From Sedimentisphaerales bacterium (GTDB lineage Bacteria; Planctomycetota; Phycisphaerae; Sedimentisphaerales; SM23-30), in contig CAXXFK010000002.1 in the NCBI GenBank assembly GCA_963663965.2, forward strand, positions 17,789 through 81,788: a stretch of DNA of 64,000 nt, read 5' to 3'. The notes under the pieces were generated by a model. The model made no database searches. It was not told the DNA's origin and saw only the letters and a list, made by a program, of their open reading frames with translations. Made by a program: the position numbers and the translations under genes. Positions within the stretch are counted from its first letter, which is position 1. Every line of letters begins with the position of its first letter. Positions 31,543 to 42,249 of the stretch are shown in pieces.

Positions 31543-34500
31543 ATGAGTAAAAAAGATTTACCATCAAAAAATAAATATCGGGAAACTTTTTCAAAAAATC
31601 ATCTGACTCAAGATTCAAGAACTGTATATTTGAAATACGAATATCATATAGAGATCTGTTGTGATTTCGAGAGAGCAAAGCCGGATTACCATTATATAAA
31701 AATAGGAATATATGATACTGCACGGCGAACACATATCAGGGAAACAATTATCATCAATTCGCATTTATCCTATGAAATAAAGACTTCCATTAAATCAACG
31801 GTAAAAAACAAATGTGCTGTGTATGAGGATGTCAAACATTTTGCAGAGCTTATATATTTACTTAATCTTAAATACGATTATGATAGACTAATACGAGGAT
31901 ATAATTCAGATAATGCCGGTTTTTTACATACCTGTGAAATATCAAAATTAAATGATGTAGAGAAAAAAACAAGAGTTGGGAAATCTTTGTATGTTACCTT
32001 AGGAAAGTTCATAGTATCAAACCAAAAGGACAAAGCATGGAAGCTGTTAAATGATGTTTTTGTAAATCCTGACCAATTGTATCACTTGATTTGCTATATC
32101 GGTGTGAGTACTTTGAGAGAAAGAGAAAAAGAGGAAGCACAACTTCTCTGGTGGCTTAATATTAGTAAGGATGACAATATCTGTTTAAGATATTTGAACG
32201 GTGATAATATTGATCGAAGTAGCGAGAGTTATAAAAGATTACTCAGCGGCATGTTTTCTTGTCTTGATGATGAATTAGAAAGTTTGCCGGAATTAATAAA
32301 AAATGCTGAAGACAAAATAGGCACGTTAAACGGCACAGAAACCAATGTTGGCAAAAACACAATAAAAACATTTAAACATCATCTTAAAGCAATTGCTGAG
32401 GCTCATCTTCAGGAAAAGTTGCATGGTAAGGCTTGTATAAAATTTAGACTTGAAATTGGTGAATATGATAACGAAAATATAACTTCGATGAATTCAATCA
32501 GGCCAGGTAATGAGAGAGAGCGAAGATGGAAAGATTTAACCTGTGAAGACTTGGAAGATATCAATGGAATAAATGTTCTGAGTTCTGACGCAGGATGTGG
32601 TAAAACAACTTTATTGAGAACGCTCCAGGTAGATATAATTGAGAGAACGGATTATATTCCCCTCTACTTAGAGGCTGCAGAAATAGTCAAATGGACATTT
32701 GATAAGTATGACTATATGTCCTTTAAGGATAAATTATCTGAATACTATAAAGCTATCATTGAAAAGGATAAGATGGGTGATTTATTGGATAGCCACAAAG
32801 ATAAACTGTATTTTATAATTGATGGCCTCGATCAAATCGAAGGAGTTGGTAGTGAATATGCAAATTTAGTAAATAGAATTATCAGCTTATTTCCAGATAA
32901 AGGAGAAAAAAGGATTATTATTGCCTCAAGACCCTTTGCCTTATCGGCCATCGAAACAAATGCACAAACTAGTCTGCTTAGACTGAAAAAGTTTAACGAT
33001 AGTGATTTACTGGCATATTTTGGATGTAATTATGATATTGCAAAGAAGTTATGTCAGAGATGTATGGAATTGCTTTGCGTTCCCATGCTTGCATATATGG
33101 TAAGATATCTTATCGAAAATAATGAGACTGAAAGCCTCAGCAATCGCACCGATATTTATCGAAGATATGTTAATTATATTCTCAATAATTCAAACCTAAG
33201 ATACAGGCATGATAATCTCAAAATATCTGACCAAACCAAAAGAGGCATACTGCGAGTCTTATCGGAGATTAGCTATAATGCAATAGCCCAAGAACGACCT
33301 TTATTTCAGGCAATACCATTTGATATTGTAGATCGATGCTCAAAAGATAATGGTATTGTTACGGATGAATTATTTAAACTTGGTATGATAAATCAATTGG
33401 GTAATAATATCTATTTTTGTCATCAGTCATTTCAGGAATATTTGGCTGCTGTTTATATTGCACTAGACGATTCACTGATTGATAAAGTTCTTCTTGAAAA
33501 ATGGAATCCTAAGTGGGAAGAAACACTCAAATTTCTAACAGGAATAAAAGGGCAAGTAATTATCGATAAGATATTGGCTGAAAAGGATAACATTATTCAT
33601 GCGAAGACATTTCAAGCAGCAAAATTTGTCCTAGAAACAGATGTAACCAAAGTATTCAAAGGAGAGATTATAAGTAAAGTTGAAGCTTTATTATGTATTC
33701 CTTTCTTTTCTGATGATGCTTTAGGATGTTTAGCTTATATTGATTATGATAAAGCAATGGATAGCCTTAAATATCTAATCATGAATGACAATGACTGTCT
33801 GGGCATACCGTCTATAATTCAACAATTAAATGTAACTATCAGAGATGATATTACTGAAATATTGGCTGATAAACTCTCGTATAATAATTGTGAAAATGTT
33901 GATGTGCTATTATTTATAATGGCAAAATTAAAAATTAAAATTAACCAATACATAATTAGTAAAATAATTGATGTAATTCCATTTGCTCATTATTTATCGT
34001 TTCATGAAATAGCATGCATATTACGAAAAGGTAATGGTGATTCAATAAATAGCATAGTAAAGCTATTAGGTAGTGTAAATTATCAAATAAGAGATGAGGC
34101 ATTAAGTATCATTAATGAACTTAAAGACAGAATTAATGAAGACTCATTGAAGATAATTATTTCTTACATAAGCAATGATGATGATGATATAGTCGAATCT
34201 GCAATTAGTGCCCTTGAAATAATAAATTATAATGTTAGTGATACTATCATTGAGACTATTATTGGATTGCTTGAAAAGAATAACGCTCAAATAATTCTAT
34301 CTGTGTCAAGTATTCTTGCTAAGGCAGAGATAAAATATCGCAAAAGAGCATCGCTTGTAATAATGAATTATATGGAATGTTCAAGCCTAATAATTCTCCA
34401 GGCATTAATTCGTGGTATAGGGATATTAAATATAAGTCTAGATAATAAAATACTAAATAAAATAGCCAATTATTTACATCATGAAAGTGGCGGTATTGTT

Positions 34501-35550
34501 CTTGAATCTCTAAAAATACTTAGCGCACAAAAAGAAAATATCAATACCCAGATTATAATTGAAATAATAAAATGCCTTGAACGGGCAGAGCCTAATGTTA
34601 TTGAGGAAACAATTAATATAATCCTATCCAGTGAAGAATTAATCACGGAAAAAGTGTATCTTGTATTAATAAGCACTATCAAGAATAATAATTCTCGTGT
34701 CAAAGGTATTATTAAGAAAGTATTGTTGAGAATAAATGATGACACTGTTCTGAAAAAGCGTCTTCTCGATATACTTATTTCTATGAACCATGAGATTGCC
34801 GCAAATAGTATTAATTCTATAAATAAATATATTTATAAAGAAGATAATAATAATCTTGCAAATGTTATTAGTCTATTACAATCTGAGGATGAAGAAATTG
34901 TAATTACTTCAATTGATACGCTATGCTCTCTCGGTATAAACATAGATAATGAGTGCCTTGAAAATCTTATTAGATTGTGTGATTCGGATAATCCTAGAAT
35001 CGTTCTTAAAGCGGCTGAATACCTTAAAGACAAGAAATACAATATAAATGAATATGTCCTTAATAATATGACATGGGCATATGATGTCAATTCAATCTAT
35101 AAAGTGATAAATGGTGTTGAAGTGCTAATAGATATGAATATGAGCATTGATGTTAGAATCATAAAAAAAATGATAGAGGTGTTTATAGAAATGGATGAGA
35201 GTGCTCAGATTACAATTATGCATGCAATCATAGATAATAAAACATCTTTAAGAAAGGACGACATAGAGTGTGTAATTAATATATTAAAGAAATGTCCTAA
35301 TGAGTCAGTTAAATATCTCTTAGATATACTAATTGGTTTAGTTGAAAATCTCGACGAGGATATGATAAATAAACTCGCCATGCAATTTAAAATGTTAACA
35401 GAAAAGGCCATAACGCCTCAAATGTTGGGATTTCAATTCATCAAAAAATCTTTAAATGACTATCACGAAACATTATTACAATATTCCAGATATAAAGAGC
35501 TATGGTTATTATTATATCAAAACGGTAAGCTTGAATCTTTGGCAGTATAA
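31543..35550 (+). CDS. NACHT-domain STAND NTPase with C-terminal HEAT/ARM-like repeats (NLR-like)
   Basis: DAGCGKTT, IIDGLDQ, IIASRP, VPML, FCHQSFQEYLAA, WEETLKFL, then helical repeats; markedly AT-rich. Confidence 0.85.
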   Translation: MSKKDLPSKNKYRETFSKNHLTQDSRTVYLKYEYHIEICCDFERAKPDYHYIKIGIYDTARRTHIRETIIINSHLSYEIKTSIKSTVKNKCAVYEDVKHFAELIYLLNLKYDYDRLIRGYNSDNAGFLHTCEISKLNDVEKKTRVGKSLYVTLGKFIVSNQKDKAWKLLNDVFVNPDQLYHLICYIGVSTLREREKEEAQLLWWLNISKDDNICLRYLNGDNIDRSSESYKRLLSGMFSCLDDELESLPELIKNAEDKIGTLNGTETNVGKNTIKTFKHHLKAIAEAHLQEKLHGKACIKFRLEIGEYDNENITSMNSIRPGNERERRWKDLTCEDLEDINGINVLSSDAGCGKTTLLRTLQVDIIERTDYIPLYLEAAEIVKWTFDKYDYMSFKDKLSEYYKAIIEKDKMGDLLDSHKDKLYFIIDGLDQIEGVGSEYANLVNRIISLFPDKGEKRIIIASRPFALSAIETNAQTSLLRLKKFNDSDLLAYFGCNYDIAKKLCQRCMELLCVPMLAYMVRYLIENNETESLSNRTDIYRRYVNYILNNSNLRYRHDNLKISDQTKRGILRVLSEISYNAIAQERPLFQAIPFDIVDRCSKDNGIVTDELFKLGMINQLGNNIYFCHQSFQEYLAAVYIALDDSLIDKVLLEKWNPKWEETLKFLTGIKGQVIIDKILAEKDNIIHAKTFQAAKFVLETDVTKVFKGEIISKVEALLCIPFFSDDALGCLAYIDYDKAMDSLKYLIMNDNDCLGIPSIIQQLNVTIRDDITEILADKLSYNNCENVDVLLFIMAKLKIKINQYIISKIIDVIPFAHYLSFHEIACILRKGNGDSINSIVKLLGSVNYQIRDEALSIINELKDRINEDSLKIIISYISNDDDDIVESAISALEIINYNVSDTIIETIIGLLEKNNAQIILSVSSILAKAEIKYRKRASLVIMNYMECSSLIILQALIRGIGILNISLDNKILNKIANYLHHESGGIVLESLKILSAQKENINTQIIIEIIKCLERAEPNVIEETINIILSSEELITEKVYLVLISTIKNNNSRVKGIIKKVLLRINDDTVLKKRLLDILISMNHEIAANSINSINKYIYKEDNNNLANVISLLQSEDEEIVITSIDTLCSLGINIDNECLENLIRLCDSDNPRIVLKAAEYLKDKKYNINEYVLNNMTWAYDVNSIYKVINGVEVLIDMNMSIDVRIIKKMIEVFIEMDESAQITIMHAIIDNKTSLRKDDIECVINILKKCPNESVKYLLDILIGLVENLDEDMINKLAMQFKMLTEKAITPQMLGFQFIKKSLNDYHETLLQYSRYKELWLLLYQNGKLESLAV

Positions 35551-35860
35551 TTATGAGTGTACTATTGGCGAGCGCGAGTAAATAAAAAACTGATTATGAT
35601 GGATTTTGGGAATATGGTAAAATATTTTTCGGTAGCGCCATAAAACTGGCAAGGAGTTGCGAACGCTTGAGATGTACTTAAAAAGGGTTAGCGACAACAT
35701 TGGCCCCGAGTCATATGAGTATACCGGCTACGGTATACTGTGTCTTTCCGGCAAGGGTGCGTGAAATAATTTTGGGCGGGTGGTATCATCGGGGTCATCA
35801 GTCTGGATTCGCCTGAGGTTGGCGGAGGCTGAGGTAAAAATGTTCAATCGAGGATGGCCC

Positions 35861-36256
35861 ATGAACAAGCAAAACGCTGAATTACCGGCCGAATTGGCAT
35901 CGGCCCTGGAGCAATTTACTCATTGGCGGGCAGAACATAAGCCTCCCACCCGGTTTCCTGACCAGTTATGGTCGCTGGCGGCCGAGCTGGCCAGCCGGCA
36001 CGGCCATCACCGGGTCTGTCGGGTTTTGAAGCTGGACTATTACAGTCTGAAGAAGCGTCTGGAACCCGGCTCAGCCAACCCCAAGCAAAGTCAAGCCCCG
36101 GCCTTTGTCGAGTTTCTGCCGGATAAAACCAGCTCAACCCGTTCCTGCACCATTGAATGCGAGAGCGCCCGCGGCGACCGTATCCGCATCCATCTGGATG
36201 GCAGAGACCTTTCGGAGCTGAGAATATTCTGCTCAGCGCTCTGGAGCGGTCTTTGA
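35861..36256 (+). CDS. tnpA: IS66 accessory protein TnpA
   Basis: HTH-like region, FVEF motif; TGATG overlap with tnpB. Confidence 0.8.
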   Translation: MNKQNAELPAELASALEQFTHWRAEHKPPTRFPDQLWSLAAELASRHGHHRVCRVLKLDYYSLKKRLEPGSANPKQSQAPAFVEFLPDKTSSTRSCTIECESARGDRIRIHLDGRDLSELRIFCSALWSGL

Positions 36257-36606
36257 TGATCCAGGTGACGCCCCAGATGCGGGTGCTGGTCGCGACCGGT
36301 CCGGTGGATTTCCGTAAAGGCATCGACGGTCTGGCCCGGCTGTGCCGGTCGGTCCTTCAGGAAGACCCGTTCAGCGGTGGTGTGTTTGTGTTTGGCAATC
36401 GCAGCCGCAAAGCCATCAAGATATTGGTCTACGACGGCCAGGGGTTCTGGATGTGCCAGAAGCGGCTGTCGCAGGGTCGGTTTCGTTTTTGGCCCGGCTC
36501 GCAGATGGCCGGCCAGCGACTGGAATCGTATCAGTTGTCCGTGTTGTTATCCGGCGGCGATCCCGATCAGGCCTGCGGGGCAAAACCCTGGCGGCGGATC
36601 CATTAA
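36256..36606 (+). CDS. tnpB: IS66 accessory protein TnpB
   Basis: PVDFRKGIDGL, FVFGNR, YDGQGFW..KRL..GRF.WP. Confidence 0.95.
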   Translation: MIQVTPQMRVLVATGPVDFRKGIDGLARLCRSVLQEDPFSGGVFVFGNRSRKAIKILVYDGQGFWMCQKRLSQGRFRFWPGSQMAGQRLESYQLSVLLSGGDPDQACGAKPWRRIH

Positions 36607-36639
36607 AGCCTGGCCCTGTTCCGGTCCGATAAGGTTGCC

Positions 36640-38283
36640 ATGGTCAAGTTGAATAAAATCAAAAAGCGACGACGCAGGCCGGCTCCAGCCCCGAAACCCG
36701 CTTCACCGGCCGAGCCGGTGATTGAGCTGGATATAGAAGAGTTGCAGGCGCTTCTTGAAAAAGCCAGAACCGAACCCTTGAGCGATGAGGATGCCACAAA
36801 GCTTGGCGCAGCCCTGGAGATGTTAGGCAACCTGGGCTCTGAGCTGGACAAGAAGAAGGTGTCGATCCAGCGTCTCAAGCAGATGTTGTTTGGTCAATCG
36901 ACCGAGAAGACCGAGACTGTCTTTAAGGACAAGAAGGATGATGAGGGTCAGGATAAGCAAGCCAACCCAAAAGAGAAACCGCCCAAAAAGCCGGCCCCGG
37001 GTCATGGCCGTAATGGCGCGGACTGTTATACCGGCGGGACCCGGACCGAGGTCAAGCATCCGGAGCTGAAAGCCGGCGATCCCTGTCCGGACTGTCAGAA
37101 AGGCACGGTCTACCAACATTCCAAACCGGCCCGGCTGGTGCGGATCAGCGGTCATGCTCCTTTGCGGGCCGGGGTCTATGAACTGGAAAAGCTGCGGTGC
37201 CATCTGTGCGGCAAAGTCTTTACTGCGCCGGCTCCCCAGGGTGTGGGCGAAGACAAATACGATGCCGAATCGGCGGCGATGATCGCATTGTTGAAATACG
37301 GCAGTGGGGTTCCATTCAATCGCCTGGCGCGTCTGCAGGGGAATCTGGGCGTGCCCCTGCCGACATCAAACCAATGGGAGATCGTCCAGGAGGCATCCGA
37401 TGACATTGATCCGGTTTACCGGGAGTTGATTCATCAGGCGGCGCAGGGCCAGGTGCTTCATAATGATGACACAACGATGAAGATCCTGAAATATCAGCCG
37501 CCTGAACCGGGCCGCAAAGGGATCTTTACCTCCGGGATCGTCTCGGTTCTGGAAGACAACCGGCGGATCGCGTTGTTCTTTACCGGCCAGAAGCATGCCG
37601 GGGAGAATCTGATGGAGCTCTTACGCCATCGCGATGAGCGTCTGGATCAACCGGTGCAGATGTGCGATGCCCTGAGCCGGAACATGCCCGAGGGCATGAA
37701 GGTGATGGTGAGCAACTGTCTGGTGCATGGCCGGCGCGGTTTTGTGGAGGTGGCTGATAACTTCCCGGAAGAATGCCTGTTCGTACTGGAGACCTTGAAA
37801 ACGGTCTATCATAACGATGACCAGACCAAAGGCATGACCGATTCGGAACGGCTGGCCTGGCATCAGGCTCATAGCGGGCCGGTGATGGAAAAACTCTATA
37901 ACTGGATGAATGAGCAGTTGGATCAGCACCAGGTGGAGCCCAACAGCACACTGGGCGGCGCGATCCGTTATATGATCAGGCACTGGGAGAAACTGACGCT
38001 GTTTTTACGCGAGCCGGGCGCTCCGCTGGACAATAATATTTGCGAACGGGCGTTGAAGAAGGCCATTCTGCACCGCAAGAACGCTTACTTCTACCAAACA
38101 GAGAACGGGGCCAGGGTGGGCGATCTTTATATGAGCCTGATTCATACCTGCGAACTGAACCAGGTCAATCCATTCGACTATCTGACCGAATTGCAGAAGA
38201 ACAAAACCGCCATCATCACCGAGCTGGCAAAATGGCTGCCCTGGAACTATCGGGACAATCTCCAGCCAGTCTCGCCAGACTGA
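36640..38283 (+). CDS. tnpC: IS66 DDE transposase TnpC
   Basis: LFGQSTEK, CPDC/CHLC zinc finger, HNDDT, CLVHGRRGF, DNNICERALK. Confidence 0.95.
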   Translation: MVKLNKIKKRRRRPAPAPKPASPAEPVIELDIEELQALLEKARTEPLSDEDATKLGAALEMLGNLGSELDKKKVSIQRLKQMLFGQSTEKTETVFKDKKDDEGQDKQANPKEKPPKKPAPGHGRNGADCYTGGTRTEVKHPELKAGDPCPDCQKGTVYQHSKPARLVRISGHAPLRAGVYELEKLRCHLCGKVFTAPAPQGVGEDKYDAESAAMIALLKYGSGVPFNRLARLQGNLGVPLPTSNQWEIVQEASDDIDPVYRELIHQAAQGQVLHNDDTTMKILKYQPPEPGRKGIFTSGIVSVLEDNRRIALFFTGQKHAGENLMELLRHRDERLDQPVQMCDALSRNMPEGMKVMVSNCLVHGRRGFVEVADNFPEECLFVLETLKTVYHNDDQTKGMTDSERLAWHQAHSGPVMEKLYNWMNEQLDQHQVEPNSTLGGAIRYMIRHWEKLTLFLREPGAPLDNNICERALKKAILHRKNAYFYQTENGARVGDLYMSLIHTCELNQVNPFDYLTELQKNKTAIITELAKWLPWNYRDNLQPVSPD

Positions 38284-38402
38284 CGCCAGACTGATATCCC
38301 GCCGTATCCGGGATTTTTTCGGGAATTTCAGATTTTTCACCCTTGCCGGAAGGACACGGTATACTTGTTGCGTTGACAGGGGAAGATGCGAGGGCATTGA
38401 GT

Positions 38403-38645
38403 TGTCAAGGGGCGGTCCAAACGGTCATGTTGAAGAATGTCTCATAGACCCTTTAAAGATGCCTACGAAAGGTGCTTTATAAGGCCAACAAGTTCAGCAT
38501 GGTAGAGACAAACAAGATTCTAACTCTTTGAGAACATGGCAATTCCCAGCGGAAATGGCCTATCGGCTCGGCTTGCATAGTCATAAGGTCAGCCGGTATG
38601 TACGGCTTGTAAGTGAGAAGGTAAATATGTTCGTATTGCCAAACA
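38403..38645 (+). pseudogene. IS21-family left end with a broken istA N-terminus
   Basis: Begins TGTCAAGGGGCGG (IS21-like end); decayed frame ANKFSMVETNKILTL*EHGNSQRK/MAYRLGLHSHKVSRYVR resembles the IstA HTH. Confidence 0.55.
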
Positions 38646-38666
38646 GATAAGGTAAAATATTTTTCG

Positions 38667-40602
38667 GTAGCGCCAGGTAACTGGCAAGGAGTAGCGGATG
38701 CAAGAGCCGTACAATGAAGGTTTAGCAAACCACATTGGCCCCGAGTCATGTGGGCATACCGGTAACGGTATGCTTGAAGCGTTGACAGGGGAAGATGCGG
38801 GCTGGGTATTGAGCCGCGTAAGTTTGTACATTATAGAACGGAGTGCCGACGCTGTCGAAAATGTCGGAAGGCAACACCGGATGTCTTATTATCGCGAGAG
38901 ACATTCCGGACTCCGCGCGGTCGAAGACCCCAGGCACGCATGGACACTTCTTGCACAGGAACTGGGAGATCCCTTGTTTGGCCTCAGGACACATTATCCT
39001 GTGGTCCGCACAGAAAATCCAATTGGAGTACTGCTGTGATGAACGAACAGGGGAAGTCGGACAGGCCCATAGTACCTAAGAAGTTCTCGAACAAAGAGGC
39101 TGGTTGCCATGCCTTGGCGGAGAGGATAGAGGGAAGGGGCCTGACCAAGGGCAATTCGTCTCTACTGCACAAGTGCCGGACACCGGGCCGGGAAAGCTTG
39201 CCAAACGCATTAGAACGAATACGACAGGCAGCCACCCGGGATAAACAGCTAAAGTTTACTTCCCTGTGGCATCATGTCTATCATGTCGACTACCTGAGAG
39301 AAGAATTCTATCGCATTAAGCGGCAGGCTTCCCCGGGTGTGGACGACCAGACATGGCAAGAGTATGAGGCCGGGTTAGAGAACAATCTCAATAGCCTGGC
39401 AGAACGACTGAGAAAGGGGGCATATCGGGCAAAACCGGTAAGGCGGGTATTCATCCCCAAACCGGATGGACGCCAGCGTCCCATTGGTATTACTACCATT
39501 GAGGATAAAATCGTCCAGCGTAGCACGACTACGGTATTGAACGCTATTTATGAGGCTGACTTCAAAGGCTTCTCCTATGGCTTTCGTCCCGGTCGCAGTG
39601 CTCACAACGCCTTAGATGCTCTCTATGTCGGCATACTCAAGCGTAAGATAAACTGGGTACTCGACGCTGACATCAGCGGCTTCTTTGATGCCATCGATCA
39701 CGATTGGCTGATTAGATTCGTCGAGCACCGAATCGGAGACCCGCGAGTAGTACGGCATATCAAGAAATGGTTGAATGCTGGAGTCGTGGAAGAAGACAAA
39801 CTTCTGCAGATCAAGGAAGGCACCCCGCAAGGTGGGAGCATATCGCCATTGCTGGCGAATATCTACCTTCATTATGTATTTGATCTGTGGGCTGACCAAT
39901 GGCGAAAGCGTAACGCCAAAGGGCATATGATTATCGTTCGATATGCTGACGATATCGTTGTCGGATTCCAATATCAATCGGATGCCAATAGATTTCATAC
40001 GGACCTGCAGAATCGATTTGGCAAGTTCAAGTTGAAGCTTCATCCGGCCAAAACCCGGCTCATTCAGTTCGGCCGCTATGCGACAGAACGAAGGACTACT
40101 CAAGGTAAAGGCAAGCCTGAGACATTCGACTTTCTTGGCTTTACGCACATCTGTTCCAAGTCAAGTAAAGGTCGGTTTATGTTGCTCCGGTTGCCGATGA
40201 GAAAGCGGGTGCAGGCCAAGCTAAAGGAAATCAAGGAACAGCTAAAATACCGGCGCTATACCTCGATTCCGGAGATGGGCCAGTGGCTTCACTCTGTTAT
40301 CAGCGGCTGGTACCGATACTACGCCGTTCCTAATACATCTCGCTATCTTGGCACCTTTCGCCGTAGGGTCGCCTGGCTTTGGTTCAGAGCGTTAAGAAGA
40401 CGCAGTCAACGAAGCCGCATGACCTGGAGGCGAATGTACCAACTGATAGCAAGATGGCTTCCGCAGCCTAAAATTCTGCATCCGTACCCCCAGGCACGCT
40501 TACAAGCTGCTCGTTATGACCCGAGGTAGGAGCCGTATGCGGTAGTTCCGCTCGTACGGATCTGTGCGGGGGGCTGGGAGTAATCCCAGTCCCTACCGCG
40601 AC
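38667..40602 (+). mobile_element. Group II intron (RT/maturase, no endonuclease domain)
   Basis: Domain V/VI GAGCCGTATGCGGTAGTTCCGCTCGTACGGATCTGTGCGGGGGG...CCCTACCGCGAC ending in AC; boundaries fixed by the IS256 IR reconstruction. Confidence 0.92.
39039..40529 (+). CDS. ltrA: Group II intron reverse transcriptase/maturase
   Basis: PGVD, IPKPDGRQRPIG, SYGFRPGRS, GTPQGGSISPLLANIYL, RYADD, FDFLGF, domain X GWYRYY; start reset to MNEQ. Confidence 0.96.
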   Translation: MNEQGKSDRPIVPKKFSNKEAGCHALAERIEGRGLTKGNSSLLHKCRTPGRESLPNALERIRQAATRDKQLKFTSLWHHVYHVDYLREEFYRIKRQASPGVDDQTWQEYEAGLENNLNSLAERLRKGAYRAKPVRRVFIPKPDGRQRPIGITTIEDKIVQRSTTTVLNAIYEADFKGFSYGFRPGRSAHNALDALYVGILKRKINWVLDADISGFFDAIDHDWLIRFVEHRIGDPRVVRHIKKWLNAGVVEEDKLLQIKEGTPQGGSISPLLANIYLHYVFDLWADQWRKRNAKGHMIIVRYADDIVVGFQYQSDANRFHTDLQNRFGKFKLKLHPAKTRLIQFGRYATERRTTQGKGKPETFDFLGFTHICSKSSKGRFMLLRLPMRKRVQAKLKEIKEQLKYRRYTSIPEMGQWLHSVISGWYRYYAVPNTSRYLGTFRRRVAWLWFRALRRRSQRSRMTWRRMYQLIARWLPQPKILHPYPQARLQAARYDPR

Positions 40603-40677
40603 CACATATTATAGGACACCGTAAAAACAGTCCTTCATCTGGTCGATGAAGTTTTTGAAATAGTAACCGAAAACCAA

Positions 40678-41934
40678 ATGAAAGGACTGACTATGAGTCA
40701 AACAGAAGAATCGACCAGTGACGTTAGGAACTTGAACCAAATTTTAAAAATCGACCAATCCCAGATGAAGGATCAGTTGGGCCAGATGGTGCGCCAGAGT
40801 GTGGAAGACACGCTCAATGCCCTGCTGGACGCCGAGGCGGACCAGCTCTGCAACGCCCAGCGTTATGAACATACCCAGGCCCGCACCGATACCCGGGCGG
40901 GCTATTATCCGCGTAAGTTTCATACGACGACCGGCGAAGTGAATTTGAAGATGCCCAAGCTGCGAAAAACGACCTTTGAAACCGCCATCATCGAGCGCTA
41001 TAAACGCCGGGAGTCTTCGGTAGAAGAGGCCCTGATCGAGATGTATCTGGCCGGCGTTTCGGTCCGGCGTATCGAAGACATCGCCGAAAGCCTGTGGGGC
41101 GCCCGTGTCAGTGCGGGCACCATCAGCAATCTGAATCAGAAAGTCTATCAACAGATCGACCAATGGCGCAACCGCAAACTGGAAGGGTCGTATCCCTATG
41201 TCTATCTGGACGGCATCGTTTTGAAACGTTGCTGGGGCGGCGAAGTCAAGAATGTTTCGATTCTGGTGGCCATTGCCGTCGATCAGGAGGGCTATCGCGA
41301 AGTGCTGGGTTCCTGCGAGGGCGCCAAAGAGGATAAAGCCGGTTGGGGCGGTTTCTTACGCGATTTAAAGCGCCGCGGCCTGCAGGGCGTTCGCCTGTTT
41401 GTTTCCGACAAATGCCTGGGTCTGGTGGACGCGCTGGCCGAGGTTTTTCCGGAGGCCGACTGGCAGCGCTGCACGGTCCACTGGTATCGCAACGTGTTCA
41501 GTCATGTGCCGCGCAAGAAGGTGCGAGAGGTAGCGGCCATGCTCAAGGCCATCCATGCCCAGGAAGACCGCCAGGCGGCGATCCAGAAGGCCGAGCAAGT
41601 GATTGTCAAATTGCGGGAGATGAAACTGGGCAAGGCCGCTGAATTGGTCCAGGAAAGCTATCTCGAAACACTCACTTACTATCAATATCCCGACAAGCAC
41701 TGGCGGCAGTTGCGAACCAATAATCCACTGGAGCGGATCATGCGTGAGATTCGTCGTCGTACGCGCGTGGTGGGCAATTTCCCGGATGGTCACTCGGCCC
41801 TGATGCTGGCCACGGCCCGCCTGAGACATATTGCCGGCACCCAATGGGGTACGAGGCGTTATTTGAATATGGATCATTTGTATGAGTTGGAGAAGGAGAA
41901 AAAAGCTGAAAAAGAGGAGGTGGTCATGGCATGA
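40678..41934 (+). CDS. IS256-family transposase
   Basis: RAGYY.R, MYLAGVS.R, YVYLDG, SDKCLGL, QRCTVHWYRN, RTNNPLER. Confidence 0.96.
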   Translation: MKGLTMSQTEESTSDVRNLNQILKIDQSQMKDQLGQMVRQSVEDTLNALLDAEADQLCNAQRYEHTQARTDTRAGYYPRKFHTTTGEVNLKMPKLRKTTFETAIIERYKRRESSVEEALIEMYLAGVSVRRIEDIAESLWGARVSAGTISNLNQKVYQQIDQWRNRKLEGSYPYVYLDGIVLKRCWGGEVKNVSILVAIAVDQEGYREVLGSCEGAKEDKAGWGGFLRDLKRRGLQGVRLFVSDKCLGLVDALAEVFPEADWQRCTVHWYRNVFSHVPRKKVREVAAMLKAIHAQEDRQAAIQKAEQVIVKLREMKLGKAAELVQESYLETLTYYQYPDKHWRQLRTNNPLERIMREIRRRTRVVGNFPDGHSALMLATARLRHIAGTQWGTRRYLNMDHLYELEKEKKAEKEEVVMA

Positions 41935-42249
41935 TCGTCCGATAAATTTTTGCCTCCCCTCGGGGAGGCAGGGCAGGGAGTTGTCCCTCCCTCCTCCATT
42001 GAAAGACTCTACCAGATGAAAGACTAATAAAAAATGTGCGAAAGATTCTTGACGCTACCGCCAAACAAGATGTGATTATTTCAAGACCGATTTGAATCGG
42101 TATTGCAAAAATGTCTTTGTATTTGCATGGGAAAGAATTAATGCATAAAATGGCGGAAATCAGTGATCCGAAATTGAGCTGATATTAGTTGTGTGCAGGA
42201 TTGAGTATCCGAGTATTGCTATTTGTAATGTATTATGAAATAAAGAGAT

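Follow-up and report, generated by a model that had tools for sequence, protein, structure and literature searches.

An IS256-family element in the 64,000-nt stretch of DNA analyzed here (the window) carries a group II intron within one of its terminal inverted repeats (IRs). The arrangement raises the question of whether the intron targets the transposon end itself and, if so, whether it immobilizes its host, travels with it as one unit or places the transposase under splicing control.

Locus structure and intron class

The IS256 element and the intron are flanked together by an 8-bp target duplication, GCCAAACA, at 38638-38645 and 42060-42067. The features of the locus, in window coordinates, are the following.

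35611..35739, + strand, relic of an older related intron behind an IR-like 21-mer; 5' end at 35632, 78% identical
38638..38645, no strand, target-site duplication, left copy (8 bp)
38646..38666, + strand, outer 21 bp of the IS256 left IR, forming the intron 5' exon; contains a -10-like hexamer (IR bp 8-13), putative IBS2 (-15 to -10) and IBS1 (38661-38666)
38667..40602, + strand, group II intron, class E-like, 1,936 nt, without endonuclease domain; starts GTAGCG, ends AC
38823..38829, + strand, putative EBS2, weakly supported and pairing imperfectly with both IR variants
38856..38861, + strand, EBS1 (CGAAAA); in 24 homologs, the exon and this position vary together
38923..38923, + strand, EBS3 (G), the partner of the first base (C) of the 3' exon, from covariation in 57 introns
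39039..40529, + strand, intron-encoded reverse transcriptase (RT)/maturase with YADD and without HNH
40530..40602, + strand, domains V and VI, with a 5-nt domain V loop and a bulged A at 40595
40603..40607, + strand, inner part of the left IR (IR bp 22-26), the start of the 3' exon
40678..41934, + strand, IS256-family transposase, 418 aa, intact, start probably at 40693
42034..42059, - strand, right IR with the empty second target (between 42039 and 42038), here on the C-rich strand
42060..42067, no strand, target-site duplication, right copy

The anatomy proposed by an earlier sequence-only reading, an intron 21 bp inside the left IR of a duplication-bracketed IS256, was borne out by matches to intron RNA and RT models and to a transposase profile. 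The same reading held that removal of 38667-40602 restores a left IR collinear with the right one, and four copies elsewhere in the genome with a naturally uninterrupted left IR (C13, C25, C28, and C6) agreed with this and fixed the intron boundaries. Without the intron, the left end and the right IR agreed at 19 of 26 positions, and at 11 of 12 over bp 14-25. Upstream, the older intron relic is split by an IS66 element (35740-38357) and resumes at about 38358-38400.

The transposase scored 367 bits against the IS256 model NF033543 (cut-off, 150) and matched the Mutator-type family PF00872. The element has the IS256 hallmarks of imperfect IRs of about 26 bp, an 8-bp duplication and a split -35/-10 promoter. 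In the promoter predicted at the junction of the two ends, right-IR bp 6-11 form the -35 and left-IR bp 8-13 the -10, and a 5- to 6-bp spacer gives a spacing of 17 to 18 bp.

The intron matched the Rfam domain I model RF02005 at 38703-38930 (182.7 bits) and RF00029, covering domains V-VI, at 40528-40602 (38 bits, E = 7.5e-5, slightly below the gathering score of 40). Its fold had a z score of -3.06, and domain V/VI with the bulged A was present. The encoded protein reached 375 bits with TIGR04416 (cut-off, 300) and carries the YADD motif, and a domain search found no HNH endonuclease domain in it. The RT open frame begins at 38940, with a start at 39036/39039 suggested by an upstream GGAG. The intron 5' end, GUAGCG, departs from the GUGYG consensus. 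It was considered as a novelty and rejected, as starts vary across the clade (GAAAGCG in 12, GTGCG in 8, GAGCG in 3, and GGAAGCG in 1 of 24 homologs); being a clade trait, it does not lower group II membership.

The RT tree comprised rows of classes C, D, and E with a single class E reference, L229, which was taken as S.me.I4 from its position and from the description in the available text of PMC5894124, where this disrupted pRmeGR4b intron is labeled class E. The window RT grouped with L229 (97/97) against the class D and C rows. Two features given for class E in the excerpts of PMC4424553 and PMC3753933, absence of the endonuclease (En) domain and a 5-nt domain V loop (the loop being common to class F, too), were both found. 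A conserved stem-loop is also present, a mere candidate for the domain Id stem-loop that carries alpha-prime at its tip in class E. The element is by these features a mobile group II intron, class E-like, with predicted splicing and retrohoming; identity of at least 99.8% among its five copies is the sole, indirect pointer to such activity.

Occupancy of the IS ends and choice of strand

A BLAST census of the 42 contigs of the genome (G000) returned six IS copies and five intron copies (99.8 to 100% identical). In all five cases, the intron lay at IR position 21|22 and pointed inward. The left IR was filled in two copies, C2 (the window) and C21, and the right IR in three, C25, C28, and C6, by inserts of 1,936 to 1,937 nt. 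Both ends were empty in copy C13, and none of the six copies in the genome had both ends filled. Matched 8-bp duplications, each different, flanked five of the six copies, the exception being C28, and the transposase frame was intact in all six. Copy C21 also carries an insert.

The check proposed earlier, to search the genome and its relatives for this IS256 with and without the intron and to compare duplications, thus returned filled and empty copies with differing duplications. Contig depths in the short-read run X1, which is possibly the source sample and serves here as an assembly check only, were 3.3 to 3.5 for the flanks, 16.9 for the intron and 19.5 for the IS, and the empty left junction joining 38666 to 40603 had a depth of 12. 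Relative to the single-copy flanks, these correspond to about five introns, about six IS copies and about four empty left ends.

The occupied end followed the strand. The intron sense strand was G-rich over ±20 kb at all five occupied sites; among the 12 IS ends, those facing the G-rich strand were filled in 5 of 6 cases and those facing the C-rich strand in 0 of 6 (sign test on five copies, P = 0.031). Copy C13 left its favorable, G-rich-strand end empty. Third-codon-position skew did not change sign between genes of the two strands at C2, C25, C28, and C21 and was weak at C6, and the intron lay antisense to the adjoining host open reading frame at C6 and C28, the join at C28 being artificial, as its duplication is unmatched. 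Together, the skew signs and the antisense introns suggest that orientation tracks replication, not local transcription. That the G-rich strand is the leading one is an assumption here, the genome being in 42 contigs without a located origin. On this assumption, the introns fill the lagging-strand template, in line with the bias measured experimentally for the intron RmInt2 in the part of PMC4615759 available to us.

In other genomes, total skew on the intron strand was positive at 15 of 18 junctions (3 near zero) and negative at 3 (-0.084, -0.087, and -0.007), and third-position skew was positive at 16 of 18; these junctions are kin, often on short contigs, and are not independent. One junction outside, G132:C188, was clearly on the wrong strand. 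The IS end itself had earlier been taken as the target of the intron; this holds, but both ends are used and the strand decides between them.

Target recognition and relatives

The base-pairing elements were located by covariation among homologs from an RT search of GTDB genomes (78 loci, 52 to 64% identical). In the 24 homologs with the 5' end and the loop both located by patterns, the loop following GCCGAC..GU changed together with the exon end, which identifies it as EBS1 (here CGAAAA, 38856-38861); in this analysis, the 5' boundary was picked among 2 to 5 offsets to maximize pairing. EBS1 pairs with the end of the left IR exon at 6 of 6 positions by Watson-Crick pairs and with right IR variants at 5 or 6 of 6. 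A conserved GCGAG stem-loop considered as EBS1 was rejected, as it does not vary among homologs whose targets differ. For EBS3, in the 57 introns with both ends located, a single column, corresponding to G38923, could form a Watson-Crick pair with the opening base of the 3' exon in 55, against 24.3 expected.

EBS2 was sought in the segment following kappa. In the 7 parsed of the 24 homologs, this segment paired better with its own exon (4.0) than after shuffling (3.07 ± 0.34), and 0 of 200 shuffles reached the observed pairing. Within the IR-targeting clade, the pairing falls at -15 to -10 (5/5 in G162 and 6/6 in G034:C132; imperfect in the window). In G069, the segment aligned by hand with its own empty right IR pairs at 7 of 7 positions, one being a wobble, and EBS1 reads CGAAAC, matching its own left IR. 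Such cases are suggestive of EBS retuning to each host IR, with single mismatches in L138 and L175. The bare 7-base IBS1 plus IBS3 motif occurs at 2,344 sites of the genome; with an IBS2-like motif added, 10 sites are left, 7 of them empty IS ends.

The proposal that the intron targets the IS end itself is thereby upheld: every copy in the genome sits at IR 21|22 rather than in an unrelated target, EBS1 and EBS3 pair with the IR, and relatives share the site. The pairing expected from domain I was found for EBS1 (and EBS3) and was imperfect for EBS2 in the window.

A DNA search with the intron alone as query covered 401 genomes of the order and matched 34, with at most two candidates scored per genome; the matches listed include at least 48 places outside G000. 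Junctions were taken from the 15 listed places aligning from query base 5 or earlier, and their exons were scored with a matrix of IR positions 1-15 from 11 intron-free IS256 ends, IBS1 being excluded. Eleven of the 15, from 8 genomes and four other families, exceeded the 99th background percentile; G069:2.302M, G303:C147, G373:C318, and G001:C95 did not. Four further junctions from separate searches, two of which used an IR-containing query, were all IR-like, and the remaining 33 listed places yielded four scored junctions, none IR-like. Outside the genome of the window, the lineage has retained the IR site in 8 or more genomes from 4 other families. None of the exons of the 24 distant homologs was IR-like (0/24), and the 78 loci contained a single weak IS256 transposase match. 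The four full-length RTs of IR-targeting introns formed a clade (96/88) inside the 97/97 group with the disrupted pRmeGR4b intron.

Full elements filled at one end only were present in G069 (two, left end) and G162 (one, right end), and G023 holds three empty relatives. A metagenomic locus, L136, carries a full-length relative, 78% identical, at the same site; it served solely as a full-length relative, since it came from a metagenome pattern scan whose 8 loci are excluded from every count, the pattern having required IR letters. No relatives were found in viral contigs, and the best matches listed in a plasmid search had 55 to 57% identity.

The closest parallel in strategy is RmInt2, which sits in both the left and right IRs of ISRm17 in Sinorhizobium meliloti GR4 and whose authors, in the accessible portions of PMC4615759 and PMC5894124, propose that IR targets double the sites and ensure that one is on the lagging strand. 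The GR4 plasmids hold seven RmInt2 copies adjoining an ISNCY transposase, in agreement with the counts in the same portion of PMC4615759. Both introns lack the endonuclease, occupy only IS IRs, have two opposite-strand targets per IS and share a lagging-template bias (in the window, from GC skew). In contrast to the window intron, RmInt2 is of class D (RF01999, in a separate clade, with an RT 33% identical to the window RT), its host ISRm17 is of the ISNCY family, not IS256, and its site is separated from the flank by 16 shared exon bases, or by 12 should the first CTAG be target duplication. One RmInt2 host copy is filled at both ends, which never occurs in the window genome, and the text of PMC4615759 at hand places RmInt2 in one strain only, compared with at least 8 other genomes in four other families for the window lineage. 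To judge from its sequence, the window intron works like RmInt2 and is unrelated to it by class and host IS.

S.me.I4 is nearer in descent (RT 51% identical, same 97/97 clade, RF02005, no En, 5-nt domain V loop), whereas the other class E members sampled use unrelated targets. RmInt1 also homes into an IS, ISRm2011-2, with a proposed block to its spread, but it has one target per IS630-family element and not two IRs, according to the available text of PMC5894124. A literature search, with subscription papers mostly beyond its scope, found no report of IS256 IRs harboring a group II intron. Homing to IS ends, presented in the sequence-only reading as an interpretation of this locus, had already been published for RmInt2 in ISRm17 in the excerpted PMC4615759 and PMC5894124, which that reading missed. 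The strategy is known, and what is new is well defined: a class E-like lineage specialized on IS256 IR 21|22, with one end of each element filled according to strand. A second intron class has independently acquired homing to both IS ends, in a second IS family, and this habit has lasted across a bacterial order; the 5/6 versus 0/6 occupancy is a natural in-genome test of the published proposal that IR targets ensure a site on the lagging-strand template. The system permits a direct test of whether introns limit IS spread, and no basic concept is changed.

Effect on IS256 and mode of spread

How the insertion affects IS256 was considered through ISCth4, an element with a Mutator-type DDE transposase, 8-bp duplications and the same promoter placement (-35 in right-IR bp 6-11, -10 in left-IR bp 8-13), differing in that one end of the window IS is split inside bp 14-25 in 5 of 6 copies. 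In the excerpt of PMC7780238, the N-terminal domain of the ISCth4 transposase makes base-specific contacts with bp 14-25, and ends shorter than 25 bp are weak donors. The intron at 21|22 reduces the match of bp 14-25 to the other end from 11/12 to 7/12, which, taken with the ISCth4 data, makes the filled end probably a poor donor. By this analogy, in which the ISCth4 contact map is carried over to the window IS, the intron probably splits the subterminal binding site of the transposase and cripples the IS. Immobilization may be partial, since the same excerpt reports integration in vitro, with slower kinetics, for an ISCth4 junction of which one end is 14 bp long. The intron start was considered as a replacement IS end and rejected (10/12 match at the tip, 5/12 over bp 14-25), and no IS copy starting at the intron 5' end was found in G000.

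The best explanation, and a probable one, is a site-specific retroelement parasitizing a transposon. EBS1 and EBS3 of the intron RNA are complementary to IR bp 16-21 and bp 22 as observed, and since this sequence is common to both IRs, each IS offers two targets in opposite orientation. By the properties of the intron class, an endonuclease-less RNP would reverse-splice into the strand exposed as lagging-strand template, the nascent lagging strand would serve as primer, and the suitably facing end alone would be filled after the IS has landed. From ISCth4, the site would lie within the transposase-read bp 14-25, an overlap expected to conserve the target and to impair donor function at the interrupted end. 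Targets may last by overlapping sequence probably needed by the transposase and the junction promoter. Occupied copies would move poorly or not at all, and the intact transposase would still be supplied to empty copies.

The main alternative is that the intron also spreads as cargo, the intron-bearing IS256 being a working, slower transposon, with donor function in its intact end and recipient function in the 21-bp tip, which would give the intron a second, DNA-based route. We consider this unlikely. Four of the five occupied copies have their own matched duplication, as the cargo route predicts, yet this is equally expected if homing comes after transposition. The two left-occupied copies in G069, which have different duplications and near-identical sequences, favor co-transposition, as do the wrong-strand junction G132:C188 and the integration of ISCth4 junctions with one short end; against co-transposition stands the minimal ISCth4 Figure-eight mimic with a short end, for which zero product is recorded in the consulted part of PMC7780238. 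Cargo should land either way, yet all five introns lie on one strand, and no two of the three right-filled copies have the same tip haplotype; two of their haplotypes recur in empty right IRs. Congruence of IS and intron SNPs was tried as a test of co-transposition and was uninformative: the intron copies differ at three sites only, all private, and IS-body SNPs show four gametes in 4 of 6 informative site pairs, so that, recombined or mixed, they do not preserve the order of events. The data fit retrohoming of each intron copy on its own, into the lagging-strand template, and not joint movement with the IS. Of the two outcomes offered earlier for the IS, immobilization is the likelier, as we infer, and composite movement is disfavored. 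Were the composite mobile, a left-end intron would lie immediately behind the circle-junction promoter, its lineage would be a long-term IS256 partner retuning EBS1/EBS2 and not a plain inactivating parasite, and the 10/12 match of the last exon base plus intron start to the right-IR tip could be a decoy end.

It is very improbable that the intron has been domesticated as a regulator, making transposase expression splicing dependent. A left-end intron does separate the -10-like hexamer from the transposase start and shares their strand, but the hexamer ends 8 bp before the splice site, so a transcript from the junction promoter would start within a few bases of that site and have almost no 5' exon, too little for IBS1. 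The transposase frame is uninterrupted, three of the five introns lie in the right end, downstream and antisense, and the choice of end tracks strand skew. The earlier suggestion of splicing control is unsupported, given the untouched frame and the antisense copies.

Equally improbable is the view that repeats exchanged the intron by DNA recombination or gene conversion, or were mixed in the assembly, instead of acquiring it by retrohoming: the four-gamete violations and the unmatched duplication of C28 are in its favor, but introns with exact junctions occur in both IRs, which have only about 26 bp in common, conversion would not yield a strand bias, and the short-read depths reproduce the copy numbers.

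Older insertions and genes around the window IS256

Upstream of the IS256 copy, a nested stack of mobile elements occupies window positions 35611-38645. Within it lies a relic that shares 78% identity with the intron and stems from an older relative; it is preceded by a 21-mer resembling the terminal inverted repeat (IR) of IS256. The relic is interrupted by an intact-looking IS66 at 35740-38357 with an 8-bp duplication, and beyond IS66 it is truncated by an IS21-like element, represented by its decayed 5' end. This sequence is 72% identical to istA copies on contigs C40, C33, and C6, and the window IS256 landed inside it. Because the relic adjoins the IR-like 21-mer, IR targeting by this intron type must also have occurred at this locus in an earlier wave. 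The genes flanking these insertions give the region the look of a defence island:

31543-35550, upstream: NACHT/HEAT-repeat protein, 1,335 aa
42250-47384, downstream: sigma-54 activator and type I restriction R subunit

Sequence details of the window copy

Six changes private to the window IS256 copy were found within 12 bp (40661-40672) upstream of the transposase, and two were found in its intron (39291 and 40244), one of them a Y/H change. In the collapsed short-read contigs, those sites have the majority letters and not the window-private ones. The following additional features were recorded in this copy:

40629-40646 and 42008-42025: second, internal 18-bp inverted repeat (89%), inward of both IRs
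38858-38830, - strand: promoter-like candidate, 11/12 match to the consensus

The left copy of the internal repeat overlaps a terminator-like hairpin at 40633-40651. The putative promoter lies within intron domain I, overlaps EBS1, the intron segment pairing with the exon end, and would be directed out of the IS. The right-IR tip and window positions 38666-38677, comprising the last exon base and the intron start, are alike at 10 of 12 positions. Since intron relatives begin with GATGCG or GAAGCG, this likeness is a local state, and it may be due to chance.

Rearranged copies and tandem introns

In the C21 copy of the source genome, an IS3-family element (L249, G000:C21:26459-27783), present in seven copies in that genome, is located at approximately IS position 89 and separates the intron from the transposase. 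A single additional A, which may be an assembly error, is present in the C21 intron close to the RT C-terminus.

In G069, another genome of the same order, the intron copy at L172 (G069:C1:2301950) is identical to its two siblings, and its non-IR 5' flank is still fully paired with EBS1, with one wobble. Its 3' side consists of about 180 bp of a slightly diverged IS left end without the transposase, an arrangement that may reflect a replaced tip or 3' exon carry-over. At L190 (G069:C1:2341500-2349500), an intron-bearing IS256 is situated in the opposite orientation inside the left part of another copy of itself.

Related class E-like introns were also observed in head-to-tail tandem at four loci, namely, L005, L015, L053, and L058.
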